DNA of 64,000 nucleotides. It comes from Podarcis liolepis. Taxonomy: Eukaryota. Positions 22,601-55,977 of this stretch are shown here, one piece after another (position 1 is the first letter of the stretch; each line of letters starts with the position of its first letter). The notes below the pieces were generated by a model that was given only the letters and a program-made list of their open reading frames with translations, did no database searches and was not told the DNA's origin. The DNA lies in assembly GCA_965112155.1 (NCBI GenBank), contig OZ218101.1; one strand, written 5' to 3'. The translations under genes were made by a program, and so were the position numbers.

Positions 22601-25600
22601 TGGGACCATGGAGTCTACTACTGTAATGTTGAAGCTCCAGGAGATACAAGCGGTGACTCAGACATAGAGGTCAAGCTCATTGTTCTCAGTACGTAGCGCT
22701 GTTCTATTTTTTAAATTTTATTTTAGGGTGACCTTCTCTTCATTTTTTTTCTTACCATTTATGAAGTTTTAGAGAACAAAGCATGGAGAAAAATGAGCCA
22801 TGCTCTGATCCTAATGATGTTTACTTCCAGGGTTATCACTTATTTCAATCCACATATTAAAAGGGGAGAAGAAGACACCAGCAATTCCTGATCTTGTACA
22901 AACACAAGAGCCGTATCTCTTGCCTCTGGCCCTTCCGAGCACTGGCATTCAGTTCTCAAAAGGCTGCCCTCAAAAGGCTACCGCGAGATAGGAAGACATT
23001 ATTTCTGTATGCAACCACTCCAGCAAGGATCCTACTTGCAAAAATCTGGAAGGGAAATTACATTGGATGCTCGGGTCGCGAACGTGATCCGTGCGGGATG
23101 CATGTTTGTAACCCGTGTCTGCGCACGCGGGGGTTGCGATTTGGTGCTTCTGCGCATGCGCAAAGCACAATTTAGCACTTCTGTGCCTGCACGGCCACCG
23201 AAACTCTGTGTGAACGCCATGTCTGTTTTGGATGAGCTATCTTGTGAGGGAAGATTGCGGAAAGCTTCCTTTTTGGTGCAGGAAGCTCATCGTACAGGCA
23301 TCTAGTAACAAGAAAATCAAGGTGATGGGGGATGATAATAATGTCCTCTTTCCCCCACCAGACTGGCTGACTGTCGTCCTTATTGTCCTTGGTGGCCTCC
23401 TCCTCCTCATGCTGATAGGGGTGTGCTGGTGCCAGTGTTGCCCTCAGCATTGCTGCTGCCATGTGCGCTGTGCCTGCTGCCCAACTCGCTGCTGCTGCAA
23501 TGAGAAAGGTAAATCGGGAAGCAGGCTGTCTGCCCCTTGCATTTGTTCCCAGGGAAACAATAACAACAGAAGGTAAAGGGACCCCTGACCATTAGGTCCA
23601 GTCATGACCCATTCTGGGATTGCAGTGCTCATCTCGCTTTATTGGCCGAGGGAGACAGCTTCCGGGTCATGTGGCCAGCAGGACTAAGCCACTTCTAGTG
23701 AACCAGAGCAGCGCACGGAAACGCCATTTACCTTCCCGCTGGAGCGGTACCTATTTATCTACATGCACTTTGACGTGCTTTCGAACTGCTAGGTGGGCAG
23801 GAGCAGGGACCGAGCTCACCCCGTCGCAGGGATTCGAACCGCCGACCTTCTGATTGGCAAGTCCTAGGCTCTGTGGTTTAACCCACAGCGCCACCCACGA
23901 CAAAACAGGTGTATTAAATCCAAAGTTGTTTTCGTACACGCTTTAACAACAAGCAAGCCACTTGGACGTCCTCTGTGGGATTTGGGGTGGTCGTGGGGGG
24001 GAAATACTGCTCAGTTGGAAACCTGACTCTGCATGTTATCCAAAATGTACACAAATAGGAAGGCCTTCGTAGTTTCCTCCAAGTAGTTCACGGTCATGTT
24101 TTATCCTCACACCAAGCCTGTGAAGTAGATTAGAATAAGAGACCATGATTAGCCTAAGGTCACCCAGTGAGCTTCATGGCTGCGTCAGGTTTTGAACCCT
24201 CGTCTCCCAGGCCCCTGATATGAAATTCTAACCACTATGCCCCATCTCCATCCCTTTCTGCCATTTGCATTTACTCTTCCAGCAATGTATAAATGCTCTC
24301 TTCATGGAACATGCCAAAGTAGACTGTAATTTTATGTTAAGGGCATTATGTAGGACAGAGTTTGCTAAACTTTTGGGGCCCATGGACACATTTGTGAACC
24401 AGAGAAACAGTCATGAACACCTTGTGTATTTATTAAATTTATTTCCCACCTTTCAGCAGCACAACATGCACACATAAATATAATGCAAACTACTCTATTG
24501 GATACAATTGAATGCTCCTTTCGAGCCTAATTTCAGCGTGGGGGGGGGAGGGGAGTCTGTGTATTGTTTCATGTCACCCCAATCTTGGAGCGGTGCAAGA
24601 TTCCAGGGGTTCAAGGCATTCTAAATCAAGCAAGGAGAAACCTCCCTGTCACTAATTTTGGTTTCCAATATTGCTATTCTATAAAATGGAGAGAGAGAGC
24701 ATGATCTCCAGAATGCTTGAGTGCACCTGTATAACATCTATTGCTTTTTCTGTCCTCTAGTGCTGGAACGACATCAGTTTATGAAACAGGCTCAACAACT
24801 TTTCCCGTGGATGACACACCACTCCCAGTCATCTTCATATCAACTAAATCCATTGCTACAGAGAGGTAGGGCTGCGTCTACAAGTCCCAAGGGAGTGAAT
24901 ATATTACAGCAGTTTAATGACTTGGATGCTTGTGGTTTGGCTTGATGATGTTGCTTCTCTCAGAGGTGAAAGAGCATCAGAGGCTACCAACCCAGCTGCT
25001 CAGAGGGTCAGGGCTGATTTCATTCGTTACACTGGCAAGTCGAAGCATGTAATCTGGTATCCGTAAAGACTTGGCATCTTGTTTCCCATAGTGACAAACC
25101 AGTTGTTTTGGAGAAAGCCCAACAAATGTTTCTGGGAAATCCACAACCAGGGGGTGTAGAAGAGAAACCTCTCCCGTTGTTTTGGGGGGTGTTTCTTTTT
25201 TCGTCCATCTGCAAACCTTGAAGTTTCCCAGGCCTACCAGTTCCTCTCTTTTGTACACGAATGGAGCAGCCCTGGGCTCCATGGGGATCCACACTCACAG
25301 AATTAGATTTCTATTTGCATTTAAGAAAGATTGCCCCTCTGTTGATTTCTTTTTGTAATCCACTTTTAACACCATCTAAGCTATTCACCATAATTACATC
25401 TTGTAGCATAGTGAACTCCATAGATTAATTATGCCCTGTGTGGTGATGTACTTTATCTGTCTTGGATCTACTGTCATCCAATTTCATTGGGTGACACACA
25501 CACACACACACACACACCCCGAGAGAGCGAGAGAGAGAGAGCACTTTTCTACCCTAGGCAAAATTTTAGAAACTGAGTTGCTTTTGTTTTCTAAACAATT

Positions 25601-28600
25601 ACTGCTATTTATTAAATTTATATACAGCCCTTCACCCGAAGATCACAATGTAGCTTTTTCTCCTAAAGAAGGTCCTCTACTTGTTGATTCCTTTGCCTCC
25701 CATTTTTCTGCACTTTTCAAAGCTGTCTTTTTGGCAAAGGGGTGATCAAGGCAGGTACTTGCCAATAAGGTCACGCCCACTGTATATGCATTTGGAGCAG
25801 ACAAAGTTTAAACAAATTGATCTGCTGCTACTACATCTAGTTTGAGTCTCTGTCTTAATGCTAAATTGGAAGCCTTTACTTCTGGGCTAGCAAATCTGTC
25901 CGCCTGTCCCCCCCAAGATGCTGTTCTCCTCTAGCTCCCATCAGCCCAAGCCAGCATGGCCATTGGTTAGGGATGATTGAAGCTGTGGTCAAGCAACATC
26001 TCGGAGGGACACAATTTCCCAGTCCCTCTTGACCTGGCTTTCTCTCATGGCAGGTGTCTTTCTTCCCTCTATCCTCCTTCTGTTACCTAGATATGTCTCT
26101 GCAGAGCAGTCAGCCACGGATGCCTCCACTTACCCAGTTGCCCTCCAACAAGCTCTTGGAGCAGCTTGAGTCAGAGGTCAGGAACCTTGGCATTTCCCAG
26201 CCCATGATACCTCCGCACCGCGTTGAGAGCAGTCGTCACCCTAGCATCCTCTCCTCTCTGGGCTCAGAGATTGTGGAACGCAGAGTGATCCAACTGCCTC
26301 CCATCATTGAGCGCATCCCATCCTCCCGCAGAACTAGTGGTTCGTCACGACCACGGCGGTCGACATATGCCTCGCGACCCCGGAGCCAAGCGAGTGACGA
26401 CGAGAGGGAGAGGAGGAGGAGGCGCTTGTCTTTGGATGAAGATGACGATTCCTACTCCAGTTACGACCAGGAACTCCGGAACAGACCTAGAGACCGCATA
26501 GTCGAGAGGCAGAGGGCTGGCAGCCATTATGACAGGTCTCGGAGTTCTAGGCCAGACTTATCTCCCATTTTGCATGGTAGGAACAGTTCTGATTCGTATC
26601 CTGAGGAGGATAGAAGGGAGCGTTCCGCACGGCATCCCTCTGACAGAAGGTATTCAGGGCAGCGGGCTTATCGACCTCTCAGTCAGAGGAGCAGGGACTC
26701 TTATCGCCAGGGCCGCCGCCGCCATCGCAGCTGTTCTCCACCATCCCGCCGGGAGTCGTGGAGTTCATCTGATGAGTACGAGCGCTTCCAAGGGAACAGC
26801 AGGCGGCATCGCCAGCGCCGCTCTCCAGACTGGCCAGAGAAACCCCCTAGTTACCGCTCGGTAGAAATCATCCCAGCCAAAGGCGACAAAGCCAGAAGCC
26901 TTGCGGAGCAGCAATCGGTAAACTAAGTGTGACAAATGTTATCTTTCATAATCTCATGGGTTTGTAGCTTTGCTCCCTGCTACAGGCTACTCTCTGGCAG
27001 AGGCTGAAGACAGGAACCATACACAAAGGGATGCCTTGTGCATTTGCACAGGGCTGCTTTCTAAAACTTGTGCCCCTGTTCAAAGACACGTGAATAGGCT
27101 CAAGAGAAGCATGGTCAAGCTCATGGCTATTTCTGAGCAAGGCAAACCAGGCCCTGCTTGCCGCTAGCCTACAAACGCTGCTTCTGTCCTTGCCCCGACA
27201 AGGGCTCAACAAGTTACCAGGACTGGGGCATGGCAGTGAGTAAGGAAGGGAGATAATGGGGAGGTGCTCTGGGGTGGGGGCAGGGAAGCCATCAGGCTGA
27301 GAACAGAAGGTGACACATCTTTTAAGGCACTGGGGTGCTTTTTCCAGCTATTGGGTATGTGGGAGCATCCATTCTAGCCCAAGAGCAAATAATGAAACAA
27401 AGCACTCCAGCCAAGAAGCTTCAGATTCTCTTCTTGGCCAGCATGGTGTTGCTATTCTGGTCTGGAGCATGGTTTGAGTTCTGGTTTCTGGTTTGAGTTC
27501 CATGCCCCCACCAGGGGGGGGGGGTTGGACTTGCTGGCTTTTTATTATTTTTCCAACCTGGCTGCCACTTCTGCATTGCCTTCTTCTTCTGCTGCCCCAA
27601 CCCTCCCTGGTAAGTTGCTGAGCCGTTTGCTTTTAAGGCAAACGGTAGGGAAGCCTTGCGCGTCTTTAGAAAGGAAGCTCTCAGTGGTGTTTGTCTGCAG
27701 CATGCTAGTGAATCAAACATTGATATGGCCCGGTCCAGTTGATGAGAGTCAAAACTGCATGTGACTTGTCTCATGTAGTTCTCCTCCTAAGAGAAAGGTA
27801 GTGGTAGTTGCGGTTTTCACAAGTAGCAAGCAAGTGGGCAGGGGTAGGTGAAAATCTGGATTAGAAAACTGTAGCATTAGGGTCAGACCTGGTTCAGATA
27901 CCTTTGCACTGCTGGTCTGATCCGAGTCAAGGGCTCCACATTAGCGTTTTCAACTGAACCTTTTTGTGCATTTCAAATTATACATGCAGGCAGTCCAAAG
28001 GTTTAAAGCCCGCACCTCCCACTCTAAGACCCTGATCTGGATCAAGCCCCCACAACAACTTATTTGTAAAAAAAAAAAACCGTGCACACTCCAAAAACAA
28101 GCAAAATACCTTGCACACAGAGGTGGAGCTGTGAGACTAATATCATGTGCAGCTTGGCCTTAAAGCACCCAGCTGCAGTGGCACTTCGTTTCCCAGCTGA
28201 AGGAGGAGAAGACACCTGCCGTGAGACGAGAGGGGCAGGAATGGTATATTCCAGCTTGATTCACCAATATGTGATAGTCATTAATATCCAAAGTTGCATT
28301 GCTGTGAACCACCCTTATGTATTGCATCCATCTCCAACCAGAGGGAGCCTCGTGAGTGCTATCGGCCCCAAATAGCTTGTACAAAGGTTCAAAATTTTGG
28401 AGCTAATTACCAGTAACAACATCCATCGTTCAGATGAGCATCATTCAGATCAAGTAGCCTCAAATGAGACTGTGGTTGGGTTAGCCCAGTAGGGAAAGTA
28501 TTGCTGTTTAAAAGCCTGGGAGGGAGGGTGAGAGGGTGAGAATGAATTATCAGTGACCTGTTGCGCTGTCCCCCATTATGGCTGCTTACCAGCTGTTTAC

Positions 28601-28664: not shown

Positions 28665-31239
28665 TCTTTTCTTCCTGCTATTGTAAAAAAAAAGTCTGCA
28701 AATCAAAACAGTCATTAGCTGTTCAGTGTAGCAGCCAACGAGAGGAATCTGTTTCATCTCAACCACCTTCAGCCTGGATTTCCTCATCTTGGACACTTTG
28801 ATTTCCAATGCAGTGGTTCATGAAAAAGCATCGTTTTGCTGATAAAGCAAGAATGAGATGGAACTGCTTTTCAACAACATCTAGTTCCCGACATCCCTGC
28901 TCTAGGGTTTGCTAGACGGTTGGCTTTTAAAAACACGCTTTGTACAGGAATAATTTGTACAAGATTAATTGCTTTATTTTTGTACAAATATTGCAACTGC
29001 ATACCCAGTACACCTAAGGTTAATACATGTTGAAATTAACTGATTGCCAATTGCCTGACTCAGAGCCTGACGAAAGTAGCCTTGGATTGCATCAGACTTT
29101 GCAATTTGATATTTACATGAACCGGTTACTGAATGAACTGTACAAGGCAGCTCAGTTGCTGAGCACTGTGAGCAAACAGAAATTAACCAAGATAAACATT
29201 CTGAGGATTTGGTATTGTAATTCAGGTGACTCATAACTTACGTGCATTTAACTTAAGCACATTCAGCTTTACACGGTTGGCAATTAATAATAATAATAAT
29301 AACAATAACAACAACAACAAAAAGGGGGACGGGCGTCCAGGAAAAAAGACTTTGGCAATCCCACCTGGAATTGAACCCAACGCATTTTGGCAATATGTGA
29401 TTTTAGCTTTACACGCTATCCCTGGAACATAACCCCCGTGTAAGTTGATCACCAGGCCTGTACATTGATCACCAGACCTAAGGCCTGGTTCATAGATGCA
29501 CTTTCATCACTTGATGGCCAACAGATGAACAGACTCACATTGACTTGTGTTCAAGGAGACTTGTGTGAGCCATGAGACATTTTTGATGGCACAAGGCAGC
29601 CCTGCCAAGTTCTTAGGATTTTCTTGTCCTGCTGCAGGCCCCCGTTCCCCCATCTCACAGCATGCTAAACTAGCAATCTTCCACCCTCTCTGGAGTGGCT
29701 TAGGGAGGGAGATGTAGAGGGGGAGCCAAGAGAGCTCCATTGTACCAGTGGCATCCCACTATTTCTCCTCTGGATCCATCCCATTGAGTTTGGCTTAAGG
29801 AAAAATGATAAGTTCTGTTCTAGAGCCAGACTGCAGTGTTGGACCTAATACCATGGAGACCCAGGTTCAAATTTCTACTTGGCCCCAACACCTAAACCAC
29901 CTTTGGCCACTCACTTCCTCTCAGACTAACCTTTCTCACAGAGACAGAAGGGATATTATAAAGTATGCTGCTCTGAGCTCCTTAGACGAAAGATGGGATA
30001 CTAAAATACATGTGGTATCATTCAACAACACAGGTTATATGACATGGGGAACAGGCTCAAATCAAAGTAGATAAATGTGATGTTTTATTAAAAAAGACTT
30101 CCTAAGGAACCCTTTGTAGAAGCTTCCTCTTTTCAGATGATGTATAGCAGAATGAAAGGTGCCTATAGCAGATATTTGCAGATACCAGATCGCACCCAAA
30201 TGGAGACTGAAGGTTATCCATTGCGTAATCATTTGATTTTTTTAATCACAGACAATAAATGTGCACCCAGATAACTGGTGTGCCACGAAGTGTAAAAAGT
30301 AGCTAACAAAAATGTTCTGTTTATCATTTAACTTCTGTAAAGTACATTTACCTGTTTTCTGAAATGTAATTGCATCTTCTACACTGTACTAAATGTGAAA
30401 TAGATTGTTAGAGACTATCAATTATATGTAGATTTAACAAGAGAAAACCTAGTCAGTGATTGGTGCAATGTCTGTATTTTCATTTCCTTTCCTGTTTTTA
30501 AAAATATATCCTGGTGGGGTTTTTTTTGGGGGGGGGGGTTGGAGTTGGGGGATTATTACACGATAGTTTTTTCTTTCTTTTTTATCACTTGAGCCAGTGA
30601 TATGTCACCTCATGATATGTCTGGGCTTCTAGGAAGAAGGAACCAGAAGTCCACAAGGCCCAGTGCTAGCACCTGGCAACTTGAAGCAGTTGTTGGGACC
30701 CCAGTGGCTGACAGGCCTCCCCCATGCCTGCTATTTGCGTCTCTGAGCCACCATTTCAATTTTTATATTTTTAAGAAACAAAATTTGAATTCCATTTAAA
30801 AGCTTGGGTGTTACTGATTTTTAAATGTCAAATAACAGCAAAAACTGCAAAAACAAATAAACAACAACCAAAAGGAATACAGGGTATTGACAAAAGAAAT
30901 AAAAAATCAGTTAAAGTGTTTTACAGCAAATATAAATTCATAGGGGCTGCCCCGCTTTTCACTGCACTTGCCATCCTCACATACCCCTTTGCCAACCGCC
31001 CTTCCCTCACACCTGATCAACCCTTTCCCTTTACATTTTACCCATCCCCTCACCTATTCCCCACAACTTGACCTAGCTCCTTCCCCAAGCCCCACTTGCT
31101 TTTAAAGGAGGCGAAAGTAGCGTGCTGCAAAATGTATTTGGAGGGCTCCGTCAGGCCCCCAAACTTGGAGTTAACGACCCCTAGAGTAAAGGGTTAACTA
31201 AAAAGGTTTACCATGTGATTCATTGGGACCCCACACTTC

Positions 31240-31368
31240 CGAACCTATCTATTGCAAAAGAGCAGATGTGGAGCAAGCAGAGACCTATGACCCCTTAAAT
31301 GCATCTATATGAGACCAGTGAGTCTGCTTTGCTTTCAGAGGTGACATCAGCCGCTGCCAGTAAGAAAG
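31240..31368 (+). promoter_or_regulatory. Putative APOV1 core promoter and non-coding exon 1
   Basis: C/EBP-like ATTGCAAAAG (31251-31260), nuclear-receptor DR1 AGACCT-A-TGACCC (31281-31293), TATA-like CTATAT (about 31305), then donor AAG|GTAAGT at 31369. Confidence 0.55.
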
Positions 31369-31527
31369 GTAAGTGAAAAAAGACCTATCTGTGTGTATAA
31401 TGCAGATCAGTTAGGGGAGATATTGAACATGATACATTTCAAGAAATTTGAATGTGGAGTGCACCATCTTGTACTGTTTTTTATTCAACAATATGTCTTG
31501 GGTGGGCTGTGGGGATATTCTCCAGTA

Positions 31528-31768
31528 CAGGGGAACCTCAGTTTTTGAACGTGTCCGCTGCCGAATGTTTCGGAAGCCAAACGCTGAAAATCCAGAAGTG
31601 AATGCTTGTGTTTTCAAACACGCCTTGGAAGTCAGACGGCTTTGGAGGTGCGTTTCTCAATTTTCACCATAGACTTTGCCGCAAGCCCTTTGATCCTCAG
31701 TTTTTGAACGTTTCGGAAGTCGAATGGTCTTCCGGAACCGATTACTTTCAGAAACCGAGGTTCCACTG
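31528..31768. mobile_element. Tc1/mariner-type MITE in APOV1 intron 1
   Basis: TA|CAGGGGAACCTC...GAGGTTCCACTG|TA; internal similarity to 18695-18930. Confidence 0.75.
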
Positions 31769-32171
31769 TATTTGTTACAACTTTTGTGCTAGTACAGTAC
31801 ATACAGTAAGTATATACTTGTTGGCCACTGATTTGCGATTTTGTTAGGCAGGTGATTTTATTACTGATTTCAGGCTGTTTGTCACCATGTGTTTTTTTTT
31901 CCTTTTTAAAAAATGATGGTGGTATAGAAAAATAATAACATAAATAATAAGAACTTGCACAAACAGATCCTGTGAACGGCTGCCGCAGAAGGGAAAAAGC
32001 AAATAGAAATTTGTAGCTGATTTCAGCAGTGCTATGTGTATTTGGTTATTGGTCTCTATTCAAGTGTGGCAGTAGTGTTGCATTTTCCTTAGAAAATACT
32101 GACAGAGTGCTTTCTTTGCAGCACTCTGTACAACTGTAGCATCAGAGTCTTCTGAAACAGTGATCTGGATC

Positions 32172-34578
32172 ATGCTTCAGTATAAAGCTTGGACTGTCAC
32201 TCTGATCCTTCTCCTTGCAAATACCCTTACTGGTAAGATCTAAAGTGCTTTGATCTGGCTTCAGATATGCTTTGCTTGCTGAATATAGGTTCCTGCTATC
32301 ACCATACCCGGTTATACTGTTGAACTAAACAGGAGTCAAAAAATCATTGGGAAAGGGGGGGATAATCTAGAGTTCTTAGTGTATTCTACAGCTCAAAGTC
32401 AAATAATTGCAACTCCAAATACTCCACTGTCCTTAGACATTGGAGAGAGTATTTATTATTAAATCTGTCAAATGATTAATTACTTTAAAAATGTAGTTAT
32501 TCATCCAGTAGGCTGATTCATTTAGGTACTGAAAGGGCCATGTTGCACTTCTTTCCATCAGATATTGTGCATTAGATGAATGCTGTATCTTGCCATCCTA
32601 TACAAGATGAAACCCTAGTTCCAGGGTTTTGCTTATGTGGAGGTTTTCTCATAGACTGACAGACACGCCCAGTTGATTGGGGCAACTGGTTTGAGTACAA
32701 TCTTTAACTCACAGCTAATAAATTAAAGCTCATGGCTTTAAATTCTCACCCCCACCCTTTGCTCAGAAACAAATTCTGCATAATAGCAGATTCAGAAATG
32801 TCGTAGTACAAGGGATCTATCATTCCTCCTGCCTATGCTATTTACAGATCTTGACAATGCTGTGTAAACATGTCTGTGTACACACACACACACATACCCA
32901 ATATATGTGCCTTGCTTCTGAAGTTCTTAGGCAATACCTGTATCCAGCTGGACACTAAATTACAGAAGAGAATTTAAATTCATTTTCCCCTCCCCTCCCC
33001 TCCCCTCCCCTCCCCTCTCTAGAAGTTGATGCTAAAGCCATCTCAAAGAGGCATGTCCGTAATGATTGGATGGTCATACCTGACGCAATTGCATTTTATG
33101 TGTTTGATGCTGTGAACAAAGTGTCTCCTAAAACTGCTGAGTCCTTGTATGGTGCTTTCCAGAATCCAATCATTCTTGAGACAAGGTATGTATGGTGATG
33201 ATGGCACATTTTTGTCATTGGTGGTGGTGGTTCAGTTGTGGAGGTTCAAGCTACAGGAACAAGATTATAGAAATAAACCAGCTTTACAGAGAAAATATGT
33301 ACTTGGGATATATGTCTCCGCCACTAAAGTGTGGACAACGTGTGTTTGTACTGGACTGGTTTACAAAAAAATGCTATATGTGTGAACTTTTCTCTTTCAG
33401 CATTGTACTGCTTTTGGCTAAGAGTATTGGCAAACTCCAGTGGGTGGTATAATTGGTAGCATATTGGCAGAGATGGGATTCACCCGCTGTGTGTTTTGCC
33501 CAACCTGGGAGGCCAGGTACAACCTAGAACCTGCAAAGCACTTGAAAGTAGGGATGGGGGACAAATTCAATTCATTTTAAATTTAAAGCCAAACCTATCA
33601 AATCCACACTTTCCAGAACAGTGCAGTATGCAAACCTTCAAAATTCCCATTTTGCCATTCTCCAACCAACCAGTGCCTACAAAAATGCATATCTCAGGGG
33701 AAAGTGTGCATAAGAATGAAGGTATTAGTGAAAATAACATACCAAAAAATGTGTTATATTAGGGGAAATTGCTTCCAAAAATGTGTGCATTAGTCAAAAC
33801 TACACATAAAAAATGTATGTGTTGGGCTAAATTTTCACTAAATTGCCGGTGAATTTTCATTAGTTATTTTTTTTAAAAAAATGCTGCAGAAATGTGGAGA
33901 ACTGAATTTAAGATTGGAAAAATGAGAAGTTGAGACAACTGCAGTTAGCAGGTCCTTCCATCCATACCAGAATGGGTTTCATATGAATGCCTGCTACCTT
34001 CTCCCACCCCCACCCCATCTTAAGGCTGCTACCAGATGCAGACAAGGATGGCTCAAACAAGAGCCTCCTCCATTGCATTTTTTTCCAGCCTGGTGAAGAG
34101 TTATAGTGAACATAAAAGCTTATTGTGGCATTCTGGTTGGCTTAATAAAGGATAAGAGCTGTAGAATTTCCTGGGAGCTCTGAAGAACATGGATGGCCCT
34201 CTATAAACCGAATGAAGGAGCAATATATTTTGGGAGGGTTCAGGTTGTGAAGCTTCCACCCATGTCCAGCCTATATACGTGTGAGCCATAAGCCCTGCAT
34301 CGCAAAAATGCCACAAGCCTCCAGTGTCTTCCTCCCAAAGGAAACAGATTTAGGGTACGCGGTGAATCCCTGGAGTTCTCAACACTCAGAAAAACGAAGG
34401 AAGCATAAAAATACTGTGTATGAAATGTCGTCTAGCATCTCATCATTACAGGTTTCTATTTCCTTGCAGGAACTTCTTGATAAAGACAACAACTGAAATC
34501 AATCGAGCATTTCAACAACTGCTGGAGAATATACGTGGTTTATGGACAAAGGAAGAAGCAGAACCAGCACAGCACTAG
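32172..34578 (+). CDS. APOV1: Apovitellenin-1 / apoVLDL-II precursor, 110 aa
   Basis: Coding exons 32172-32232, 33023-33185, 34470-34578 give MLQYKAWTVTLILLLANTLTEVDAKAISKRHVRNDWMVIPDAIAFYVFDAVNKVSPKTAESLYGAFQNPIILETRNFLIKTTTEINRAFQQLLENIRGLWTKEEAEPAQH*. It shares MxQY, DWxVIPDA, AVNKVSP and RNFLI with avian apovitellenin-1. A probable non-coding exon 1 ends at 31368 (AAG|GTAAGT) and exon 2 begins at 32122, matching the 4-exon avian layout. Confidence 0.9.
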
Positions 34579-34655
34579 GACCTAAACGAATCTGTGGAGT
34601 GGCCTCTTCCTTGTATTCATCAGTGGATCATAATGTGCAGAGGGTTATCTTGGTA

Positions 34656-35150
34656 TAGTTTTTAGTATTATTATTATTTCATTTTATAATGTATATAAAA
34701 CAGACAACAATTATAACAACCGACAAAAAATTAAAGATGAAAAACAAAACTATAAAATAGGCATATGGAATGAGTAATTGGACATGAGTTAAATTAACAA
34801 AGTCCAAGTAAAGACTATCAAATTTACCAGATCATTAAGTTCAGTTTCAGATTTGCCAGGCTTGTGATGAAGGTTATCTTGAAAACGATGGCTCCACTGT
34901 ATATGTCATAAAGGAATGCCAAATCATATAAAAAGTTTCTGGAGGTTCTAGCACTCATCGAAATCTCCAATTATGCTTGATTTTCTCCTTTATAGCTATA
35001 TTCTAGAGTGAATGGTACCAAGCGTCTAGTGTAAGATTTTGGGCTGTTTTCCACTGAATTGCAATTATTGTTTGTGCTGCCAAGATCTTATATAAGACCA
35101 GTTCTTTTGGCGATATATTTACATTGGTATCATCAAAAAATATTCAGTCA
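34656..35150 (-). mobile_element. L1-clade LINE 3' fragment, antisense to APOV1
   Basis: Minus strand reads ILAAQTIIAIQWKTAQNLTLDAWYHSL*NIAIKEKI...FYMIWHSFMTY (ORF2 C-terminus), followed by a 3'UTR and an A-rich tail toward 34656. Confidence 0.7.
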
Positions 35151-35769
35151 CATGATTTCCAGTGCCTCACAAAGCATCACAAGTCATGTCCAAGGCTTTG
35201 TGGGGCCTTGGAGGTGGAGTCTGAGGTCTCACAGGGCCTTGGACATGACTTCCGTGGTTCCTAGGCACCGCTGCAGAGCTCACAAGGTGATGTCATGGCT
35301 CAATGTGAGGTCAGTATGTCACATTATGTTGTAGACCGCTAGGCACCCATAATCTGGGGCCCAAATTGGCACCCTGGATCCAACAGAAGTCAAGCATGGC
35401 TCTCTCTCTCTTCCCAGCCTGCTTCCAACTTCTAACTTTTAGCTCACATAACCCAACTCTCACTCCTAGCCTTTGTCTTTCCAAATACCAGCAAGTTGGG
35501 GGAGAGGGTCCCACCCATTTGTTATCTCGCATAGAGCCACTTCCTTTGTTACCTTAATGACCCATACTTCAACAATTACCTCATCAGGAAGTTAGCCTGG
35601 CTTTTCCAGGAATTGAAATTGGATCCAGGAATTTGAAAGGCGCTCAAGCATACAGCCTATGTCTCCTAAACTCAGAACAGTACAATTTAGAAACAAATTC
35701 ATTTCCCTCTCTACCTGTTGTGTTTAATAAATTGTATTAAGGGTCTCAGAGCTTGTGTTTTTACATGTT

Positions 35770-36300
35770 CTTTTATAATAAAACTATAAATTTGATGGAA
35801 ATAAATCCAGTTTGTGTTAAGATTTGACGAAGTTAATTTTATTTGGTTACTGGCTACAGGCTATAGATAATTGGTATAGAAATCTCGTAATGTGTATACA
35901 AGATTTGCAGTATTCAAATTGCTTATCTCTCCCTTGCTGGAAAAAAATATCTGGGTGAGTTGATATTGGAATTAATGGAAAAACAATAGGTGCAAATTTA
36001 GGTTGCCATGTTTTCAATATCTGAATAGTACAATTAGTAAATGGATTTGGTATAGAGTTCATTAGATCTGGTTTAAGATTCTCCTAGCAAGAGATGTTTA
36101 GAGAGTTTGATTTCCCAGTGTTTATTCGCTTTGATTATATATAATAACCGTATCAGTTGAAATGCAGAGTAGTAGAAATATAAATTAGGTATACCCCATC
36201 CATCGAACTGAGCTCTGCGAAATAAAAAGTATTGACTTAGTCTAGGTTTTTTTCTTTTGCAAAATAAAATTATTATTTTAAGTTGGTATGTTTTCTCATG
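35770..36300 (-). mobile_element. L1-clade LINE ORF2 internal fragment
   Basis: KKPRLSQYFLFRRAQFDGWGIPNLYFYYSAFQL matches the post-RT 'KPRI...GGLGLPNL..YY.A' motif of L1-clade ORF2. Confidence 0.7.
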
Positions 36301-45074: not shown

Positions 45075-46157
45075 TCAGAATGATACTGACCTCCTTCTCT
45101 TCCTAGAAACATCTTCCCTGTGGGCAAACACAGTCAAGGAGTAGCTAAGGCGAGTGTCCGAGCTATCAGAACTGGTTCCAAAGTTGTTGGCCTTTGTGCA
45201 CGGAGTTATACATTGCATCATTGCCCTACGGATGTAGTCATCAAAGAAGTAGTAGATGAAAGGGTTTGTGCAGCTGTTGGCAAACGCAAATGGGCCACTC
45301 AGTTCCATACCGATATGGGCAACTTTGTAGGGAAGGCAGAAAGGTGGCTTCAGTTCCTGGATTGCAGACATCAGAGCTAGAAACTTAAAAATGTTGAAAG
45401 GAGCCCAAGATAAAACAAAAATGATCACTACAGTGAAGACAATTTTGATGGATTTCTTCAGCTTTTTATCATGTTTTCCAGATTTCTGATAATGCACACA
45501 GAGTTTCTTGGTGATGGAGCAATAAAAAGTCAAGATGATGAACAGAGGAACAAAGAACGCCAAAATTAGAAGCAGCAGCGACCCAATCCGGTGAGTGGAT
45601 GTGATTTCCTTGTCCACACAATATGTGCTGTTGTCATATCTCCTCAGCTCTCTGGACAGAAGGGTTGGCAACCCAAGTAGGCAGGACAGAATCCAGGCAC
45701 AAGTGCAAAGGATGATGGAATACAGCTTTGTTCTGATCCTCCTAGCCACTGATGGGTACATGATTGCCAGGTACCGATCGCTACTCATGCAAGTGAGGAG
45801 AAAGACGGTGCAGTACATGTTGACTGAGATGGTGTAGGAGCTGCCTTTGCAGAGAAAAGAGCCAGATCTCCAAAGTCCCGAGGTCCTCTCTTTGTCTACC
45901 CAAAAGGGTAATGTGATAAGGAATATAAAATCAGACACTGCCAAGTTGACAATGAAGATATCAATTAGCCTCTGAACCCGTCGTTTGAAGATTAGCGCTC
46001 CTATTAGAAGGGCATTGCCAACAATCCCCACCAGGAATACAATGGTATAGAGAGCAGGCAGGAAAATGTGTTTGTAAGGCAATTCCACAGCTGAGCAGTT
46101 ATCTTCAGGAGAATCTGTGTAGAAATAGTAATCATAGCTAGAAGTTGATTTCTCCAT
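45075..46157 (-). CDS. GPR15: G protein-coupled receptor 15, single exon, 360 aa
   Basis: Seven-TM class A GPCR: Tyr-rich N-terminus (SYDYYFYTDS), GN in TM1, LAVSD, DRY, SWAPF, NSCTNPFIY and C-terminus RRRSVSF*. Lies head-to-head with CLDND1, as in mammals. Confidence 0.95.
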   Translation of the reverse strand: MEKSTSSYDYYFYTDSPEDNCSAVELPYKHIFLPALYTIVFLVGIVGNALLIGALIFKRRVQRLIDIFIVNLAVSDFIFLITLPFWVDKERTSGLWRSGSFLCKGSSYTISVNMYCTVFLLTCMSSDRYLAIMYPSVARRIRTKLYSIILCTCAWILSCLLGLPTLLSRELRRYDNSTYCVDKEITSTHRIGSLLLLILAFFVPLFIILTFYCSITKKLCVHYQKSGKHDKKLKKSIKIVFTVVIIFVLSWAPFNIFKFLALMSAIQELKPPFCLPYKVAHIGMELSGPFAFANSCTNPFIYYFFDDYIRRAMMQCITPCTKANNFGTSSDSSDTRLSYSLTVFAHREDVSRKRRRSVSF

Positions 46158-47114
46158 CTCAAAAATGATTTGTGCGAAGAAGCTTTCAGCACTTTTATGT
46201 TCTTTTTGGCACTACAGATGACAGTTCTCGTCTTTTTTCCTTTCAGTTTCTTCCAGATGATCAGAAAAATCTGACGTACAACATATCAATCTCTGACTAG
46301 GCATTTAAATGTCTAGCACAGAATGGGAGGGCCTGGTTTGATTTGACCAACCAGCATGCATATACAGGCAGCTTTGATCGTAAAATATGGTAGGGTGGGT
46401 TTCCTTGAAATTTTAGGAAGTGGGGAGGGGAGAGGTTTAAGTTTCTTCGTAAATACAATTTATTAGTTGAGGTTTTTGAGGTTATAGATGGTTAGCAGAA
46501 GTAAGAAAGTGGTGAATTCAGTTCGTCAGGGTGGGTTGTTATTTAAATAACCGTTAGCTTGTCTAATCTGTGTTTCTAAACTTGGGAGGGTTCCACTCCC
46601 GCAAGCTTTACCAATTGACATGTTGCTGTTATTTGTAGAATGAATGTCCAACGCCTTCTCAATTCTGACAGCAGCAAAATCTTGCGAACAAAGATGTGCT
46701 TTAAAACTTCTACCTGACCTTTAATGTCAGATTTTATTCTATATTGCTCTTAAAAACAGTATCTTGCTCTTATATCTTTTCTGAAGCATTTAAATACTCT
46801 TTTCTTCACTTCAAGTTTTGGTCCACCCTGTTAGTTGCAGCACGAGAAAAAATATATATCAGGGTCACAGGTGAAGGAAAATGAATTTATGGGATGGTAG
46901 AGCTTTGCCCCACAGATTAAGACTTCTCATTGAGAAACAGAAGGATATTTTGCATTCATGCTACAATCATAAACAGATTTTATTTGAAAAAAGTCCTGTT
47001 CATTTTTGTGGCTTTAACAAAAGGATGCTTAGGATTGCAACCTTGTTTTAAACTCTGTTTAATTTGTATGTGAACTGTCTTTTCTTTGAGTAACCATAGA
47101 GGGAGAGACTATGG

Positions 47115-53373: not shown

Positions 53374-55977
<2,604 letters not shown>

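Follow-up and report, generated by a model that had tools for sequence, protein, structure and literature searches.

The 64,000-nucleotide stretch of DNA analysed here (the window) carries an intact apovitellenin-1/apoVLDL-II orthologue in a Podarcis-like lacertid, an ordinary gene that is already annotated in congeners. Our main reading, to which we give a probability of roughly 0.8, is a single-copy, intact and spliced orthologue in the usual cysteine-free form, likely working as in birds; its functional part is argued by analogy.

Exon structure and transcript support

All motifs named in the initial annotation were found in frame on the + strand where it had placed them. When splice combinations were compared, the exon set 32172-32232 + 33023-33185 + 34470-34578 yielded a product of 110 residues with no cysteine and the C-terminus LWTKEEAEPAQH. 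The three coding exons are joined by GT..AG introns, and the reading frame runs through them without a stop codon or frameshift (Table 1). The gene had been described as intact, and the uninterrupted frame, the GT-AG introns and the spliced contigs described below agree with that description. It had also been noted that the gene was missed by the open reading frame track, which is so but trivial, because exons 3 and 4 lie in open frames of only 79 and 70 codons.

Table 1. Features of the apovitellenin-1 gene and its neighbours, in window positions.
Feature	Positions	Strand	Remarks
ILDR/LSR-family exons	23214-23573, 26033-26923	+	PF05624, E 2e-25; Cys-rich juxtamembrane part, Arg/Ser-rich tail
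Exon 1, 5' UTR	31231..31368	+	joint 31368/32122 GT..AG in 3 of 4 RNA-like runs; donor GTAAGT
Intron 1, within 5' UTR	31369..32121	+	753 nt
Exon 2	32122..32232	+	50 nt UTR; ATG at 32172; codons 1-20; predicted signal peptide; phase-1 end
Intron 2	32233..33022	+	790 nt; contig pieces agree with acceptor 33023
Exon 3	33023..33185	+	residues 21-75: basic N-terminal segment, predicted helices 38-54 and 56-66; PF05418 match
Intron 3	33186..34469	+	1284 nt; joint in 4 of 4 RNA-like runs
Exon 4, coding part	34470..34578	+	residues 76-110: predicted amphipathic helix, Trp100, 10-residue Lys/Glu tail, TAG stop
3' UTR	34579..36000	+	at least 1.4 kb in two runs (contigs reach end of aligned stretch)
GPR15, intronless open frame	45078-46211	-	378 codons stop to stop; E 1e-135 to solved GPR15
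Claudin-like exons, likely CLDND1	53374-53727, 55693-55974	+	

Transcripts were assessed using contigs of four RNA-like runs, which represent four studies and two related organisms, over positions 31000-36000. These four belong to a set of 14 RNA-like runs (five studies) that match part of the stretch; the RNA nature of the runs is a guess, which the GT..AG joints favour. None of the runs listed as matching is on record as RNA, and the records name neither tissue nor sex. The joint 33185/34470 is present in contigs of all four. The joint table has no entry for 32232/33023, since the simple repeat beside it (32868-33024) was left out; in three of the four runs exon 2 adjoins exon 3 within single contigs, leaving 2, 2 and 4 unplaced letters, exactly as predicted by acceptor 33023. 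Both pairs of splice sites proposed initially, 32232/33023 and 33185/34470, are thus borne out, by contigs of three and four of the four runs respectively. Since the intron at 31369-32121 is spliced out in three of the four runs, the gene has an extra non-coding first exon that the initial annotation did not list. Its start is uncertain, with contigs extending to 31219, 31231 or about 31339, and contigs cannot define starts. A DNA-like run continues without splicing across the exon borders, and the 15 of its 133 rows listed contain none of the three joints. The last exon extends beyond 36000 in two of the RNA-like runs. Downstream of the stop codon, AATAAA words occur at 35726, 35777, 35800, 36221 and 36263.

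Raw-read cover of the exons was below 1x in two bulk RNA runs (about 12% read), and for the coding exons it was zero in one single-cell run. Low cover in three raw-read runs is what a relic, or a chance exon set without a protein product, would predict. That explanation is refuted by splicing and conservation, given a frame free of stops and frameshifts, canonical splice sites, spliced contigs, 97% identity to the proteins of congeners and conserved neighbouring genes, and we regard it as scarcely credible.

Several features of the transcribed region deserve mention in their own right. A tandem acceptor (TAG/AAG, 33020-33025) permits a 109-residue form that lacks one Glu, and it seems conserved because turtle records labelled 'isoform X2' are without the same residue. 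An in-frame upstream ATG at 31299-31301, just upstream of the TATA-like TATATGA at 31306, would yield a 150-residue form; an older Podarcis muralis model had that same length of 150 residues and has now been replaced by a 110-residue model. High-copy dispersed repeats occupy parts of intron 1 (about 31550-31760) and intron 3 (about 33550-33930), where the summed contig depth of the DNA-like run is in the thousands.

Family membership and copy number

The initial annotation had identified the product as apovitellenin-1/apoVLDL-II and had proposed a family search of the spliced protein as a check. This search returned the Apo-VLDL-II family (PF05418) for both of the larger coding exons: exon 3 matched profile positions 1-50 (E 1.8e-21, 76.8 bits) and exon 4 matched positions 52-80 (E 4.9e-05, 24.1 bits), each separately passing the curated cut-off of 23.4 bits. 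A 97% identical relative, P0001, matched the profile over 1-80 of 80 with 115.7 bits, and its mature domain begins at residue 25. Together with the identity of 107 of 110 residues to the annotated apovitellenin-1-like protein of Podarcis lilfordi (CAI5773014.1), the PF05418 scores above cut-off establish the identification. The other close relatives are P. muralis XP_028582413.2 (106/110 identical), P. raffonei (105/110), Zootoca vivipara (100-101 of 110) and Lacerta agilis (96/107). All five proteins lack cysteine and have the same tail; that of L. agilis has 107 residues and the others 110. These lacertid relatives differ by 3 to 11 substitutions, none of which alters the overall picture.

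Genome searches with exon 3 and with the family, in which the best candidates were scored, identified a single locus, the one described here, and among those candidates there was no paralogue or retrocopy in the lizard's own genome. A profile search gave 205 matches; the 120 listed include turtles, lizards, snakes, an amphisbaenian, the tuatara, an alligator, newts, frogs and many birds, and nearly all of them are already named apovitellenin-1 or APOV1. A HMMER scan of representatives gave 28 matches, and the ten identified belong to salamanders, frogs and a caecilian. The named matches listed for the profile search and the HMMER scan include neither mammals nor fish. A tree of 56 hand-picked rows places the gene in the lacertid clade with support of 100/98.

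The neighbouring genes agree with those of a bird. In PMC8912253 the turkey gene order is given as CLDND1, GPR15, LOC100550884, ILDR1, with one gene, LOC100550884, at the position of apovitellenin and with the same ILDR-family, GPR15 and claudin-like neighbours as in the window. By synteny with turkey, the ILDR/LSR-family gene at 23-27 kb would be ILDR1. In humans ILDR1 lies far from GPR15/CLDND1, and the apovitellenin locus may therefore fall on a break in mammalian synteny, coincident with loss of the gene.

The cysteine-free chain is the family norm

The lizard protein is 45% identical over 103 residues to chicken apoVLDL-II (APOV1, PF05418), and the two have the motifs DW-x-IPD, VNKVSP and RNFL in common. 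They differ in the N-terminal segment, which reads KAISKRHV (the non-bird type) in the lizard and KSIIDRE in chicken, in net charge (+1 against +3) and at the position of the chicken cysteine, which is Trp100 in the lizard.

Cysteine was counted in 145 of 158 proteins, after 13 isoform duplicates and mis-spliced or extended models had been left out. The mature chain contains cysteine in none of 31 squamates, 26 turtles, one tuatara, one alligator and four amphibians (0/63 non-birds overall), and in 8 of 82 birds. Where chicken has its cysteine, 73 of the 82 birds have Trp, three have Cys, four have a gap and two have another residue. The three birds with Cys at this column are chicken, an owlet-nightjar and a mousebird, and among nine galliforms chicken alone has a cysteine. 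There is an exception to the rule among 11 further, more distant sequences, nine of them named amphibian: four have one cysteine, at other positions.

The absence of cysteine from the 110-residue product had been correctly recognised, and no covalent dimer is therefore possible. It had been presented as a squamate peculiarity; on this count the claim fails, since the mature chain is cysteine-free in 63 of 63 non-birds and in 74 of 82 birds, and the proposed novelty falls because chicken had been taken as the norm. With cysteine at the chicken column in only 3 of 82 birds and none of 63 non-birds, the interchain disulphide does not define the family. The cysteine-less state is the family norm and chicken is the exception. 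This state is compatible with function, as is known from quail: the title of a 1996 study states that the disulphide dimer is not essential for lipoprotein lipase inhibition by quail apoVLDL-II (PMC1217528). The Japanese quail protein (APOV1_COTJA) is likewise naturally free of cysteine; it has a short bird-type tail, unlike that of the lizard, and function was measured in quail, whereas the lizard protein is known from its sequence. On the quail precedent, self-association without a disulphide is probably not decisive for function.

The C-terminal tail

The bird tail (YTKVLGY type) has seven residues and the lizard tail has ten. At least two Asp/Glu residues follow the conserved Trp in all seven lacertids, 20 of 25 other squamates, all 26 turtles, the tuatara and all four amphibians, and in neither the single alligator nor any of the 82 birds. 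Turtle tails end in KKKEEAPAQQ, that of the tuatara in KKKEEVPTQQ and that of this lizard in TKEEAEPAQH. On these alignments the Lys/Glu tail with a PAQQ/PAQH end, common to turtles and tuatara, is of the ancestral type, and the bird YTKVLGY tail is derived. With a net charge of -2, lacertid tails have the most acidic of the group medians compared; those of turtles and birds carry +1, and those of other squamates are neutral (0). The description of the tail as divergent and acidic therefore holds in part: it is slightly more acidic in lacertids (net -2), but its type is common to turtles, the tuatara and most squamates.

These comparisons correct the polarity of the textbook picture, in that the disulphide and the short tail of chicken, usually treated as typical, are states derived in birds or in chicken itself.

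Egg-laying and live birth

The initial annotation had linked the gene to transitions between oviparity and viviparity. The live-bearing Zootoca vivipara, Thamnophis, Notechis, Crotalus, Candoia and Hemicordylus all have an annotated, intact orthologue. In a crude protein-level tree of 56 rows, end branches range from 0.02 to 0.24 in live-bearing species and from 0 to 0.44 in egg-layers. With the gene intact in live-bearing species and their branches without a pattern, we find no support for the link. Placentotrophic skinks, where loss of the gene would be most likely, are absent among the matches listed.

A squamate-specific, cysteine-less and acidic-tailed variant that bears on these transitions is consequently very improbable. 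The protein does lack cysteine and its tail has a net charge of -2, but both the cysteine-less state and the tail type are widespread beyond squamates, which refutes the proposal on both points. Its evolutionary part is opposed by the intact orthologues of live-bearing species, whose end branches lie within the egg-layer range, and the main text of a 141-genome viviparity preprint (10.1101/2025.09.26.678543) does not contain 'apov'. Our analysis confirms an annotation already public for congeners, at a locus that is not special.

Lacertid-specific substitutions and regulation

Twelve lacertid positions depart from the residue held by at least 75% of the other non-bird members. All 82 birds and 55 of the 57 other non-birds have R at position 34, where the seven lacertids have N, H or Y; E90Q and K95N are further clear changes. 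All seven lacertids have lost the RRD motif, which 23 of the 25 other squamates, 25 of the 26 turtles and 81 of the 82 birds retain. Its loss is evidently tolerated, because Candoia, Laticauda and one turtle also lack it. From residue 25 onwards the net charge is about 0 in lacertids, +2 in other squamates, +4 in turtles and +3 in birds. To judge from the sequences, these charge and residue changes could matter for lipase or heparan binding. Residues 25-35 read KAISKRHVRRD in non-bird members and differently in birds, and it is the second Arg that lacertids have lost; the KRHVRR-D of non-bird members looks like the site at which a propeptide of the proalbumin type is cleaved.

Within 2978-50545 there was no oestrogen response element with at most one mismatch. 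Matches with two mismatches numbered 16, against 23 expected by chance, and none fell in the 8.8 kb upstream of exon 1; a DR1 scan gave 4 matches against 6.3 expected. Because the scans are at or below chance, the DR1-like site at 31281 and the C/EBP-like TTGCAAAA at 31252 do not count as evidence.

The absence of an oestrogen response element near the promoter, the loss of RRD in seven of seven lacertids and their lower net charge would all fit a shift of role, in which the lacertid protein is a general, sex-independent exchangeable apolipoprotein of liver or gut lipoproteins, less strongly controlled by oestrogen and less inhibitory to lipase. The occurrence of part of the stretch in RNA-like runs of five studies (14 runs, 4 compared) points the same way. 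Such elements are, however, often degenerate or distant, and exon cover is very uneven among runs. Such unevenness fits restricted expression, even if contig depth is no basis for ranking it. The stem branches of the 56-row tree also argue against a shift, the lacertid stem (0.25) being no longer than that of snakes (0.26) and shorter than that of birds (0.47), the longest reptile stem. We consider a shifted role unlikely and treat the lacertid peculiarities (RRD loss, charge, no nearby oestrogen element) as leads rather than findings. If lizards do use the gene without oestrogen control or lipase inhibition, this would bear on the evolution of yolk lipid supply.

Predicted structure and similarity to other apolipoproteins

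An AlphaFold model was built from a 110-row alignment headed by P0001 (mean pLDDT 71.9, pTM 0.38). It contains a hydrophobic signal-type helix at 2-21, a disordered basic segment and helices at 38-54, 56-66 and 69-104, the last with a hydrophobic moment of 0.62-0.65. Residues 1-24 are predicted to be a cleaved signal peptide, and the modelled all-helical chain fits a lipid-surface protein without a fixed tertiary fold. Structural comparisons gave generic results: by sequence no solved relative was found below E 0.29, Foldseek gave no match at E 0.001, and the best VIA-align hit (Z 5.9) reflects generic helices only.

Outside the family, the neighbouring clusters in a language-model comparison were ApoC-II (0.87), ApoC-IV (0.84), ApoA-II (0.81) and ApoC-I (0.75), values below 0.9 that serve as leads. 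These are also small secreted amphipathic helical proteins. The lizard gene shares its four-exon layout with theirs: one intron interrupts the 5' UTR, one lies close to where the signal peptide ends and one falls within the mature part. ApoC-II activates lipoprotein lipase, whereas apoVLDL-II inhibits it. The four families are absent among the best 25 of the 34 Pfam families matched by 110 members at E of at most 1, and an ApoC-II profile found no match in the lizard's own genome, where the control was silent too.

A more speculative proposal, marginally less probable than the shifted role discussed above, has the lacertid protein diverging from that of birds: with the RRD motif lost, three to four positive charges fewer and no oestrogen element near the promoter, it may be processed or regulated in another way and act as a sex-independent lipase modulator, and the family itself may be a distant relation of ApoC-II that became an inhibitor.

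Proposed function and distribution of the family

We favour the reading of an ordinary orthologue that works as in birds. In PMC3898076 and PMC6839265, hen apoVLDL-II is described as induced by oestrogen in the liver, carried on yolk-bound VLDL and inhibitory to lipoprotein lipase. By extension from birds, the lizard protein would be made in the liver of egg-forming females upon oestrogen induction. It would be secreted after the predicted cleavage of its signal peptide, and the modelled amphipathic helix 69-104 would rest on the lipoprotein surface. Bound to yolk-directed VLDL, again as in birds, it would hold off lipoprotein lipase and be delivered to the yolk.

Within the library searched, a literature search for apoVLDL-II, apovitellenin or APOV1 in lizards, squamates, reptiles and turtles returned no reptile paper, its matches being on poultry or eggs to judge from their listings. 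The term 'apov' is likewise absent from the main texts of PMC8081666, PMC13387830, PMC5174741 and PMC8892231, whose supplements may use a LOC number. The gene spans amphibians, from caecilians on, and all reptile groups, while the literature found describes birds only. Amphibians appear to have extra copies, with two each in Spea and Xenopus laevis and adjacent locus tags in Pleurodeles. In the axolotl, the first 100 residues of a 386-residue 'MAP1B-like' protein match the family profile (E 6e-06) and are followed by a long acidic repeat region.
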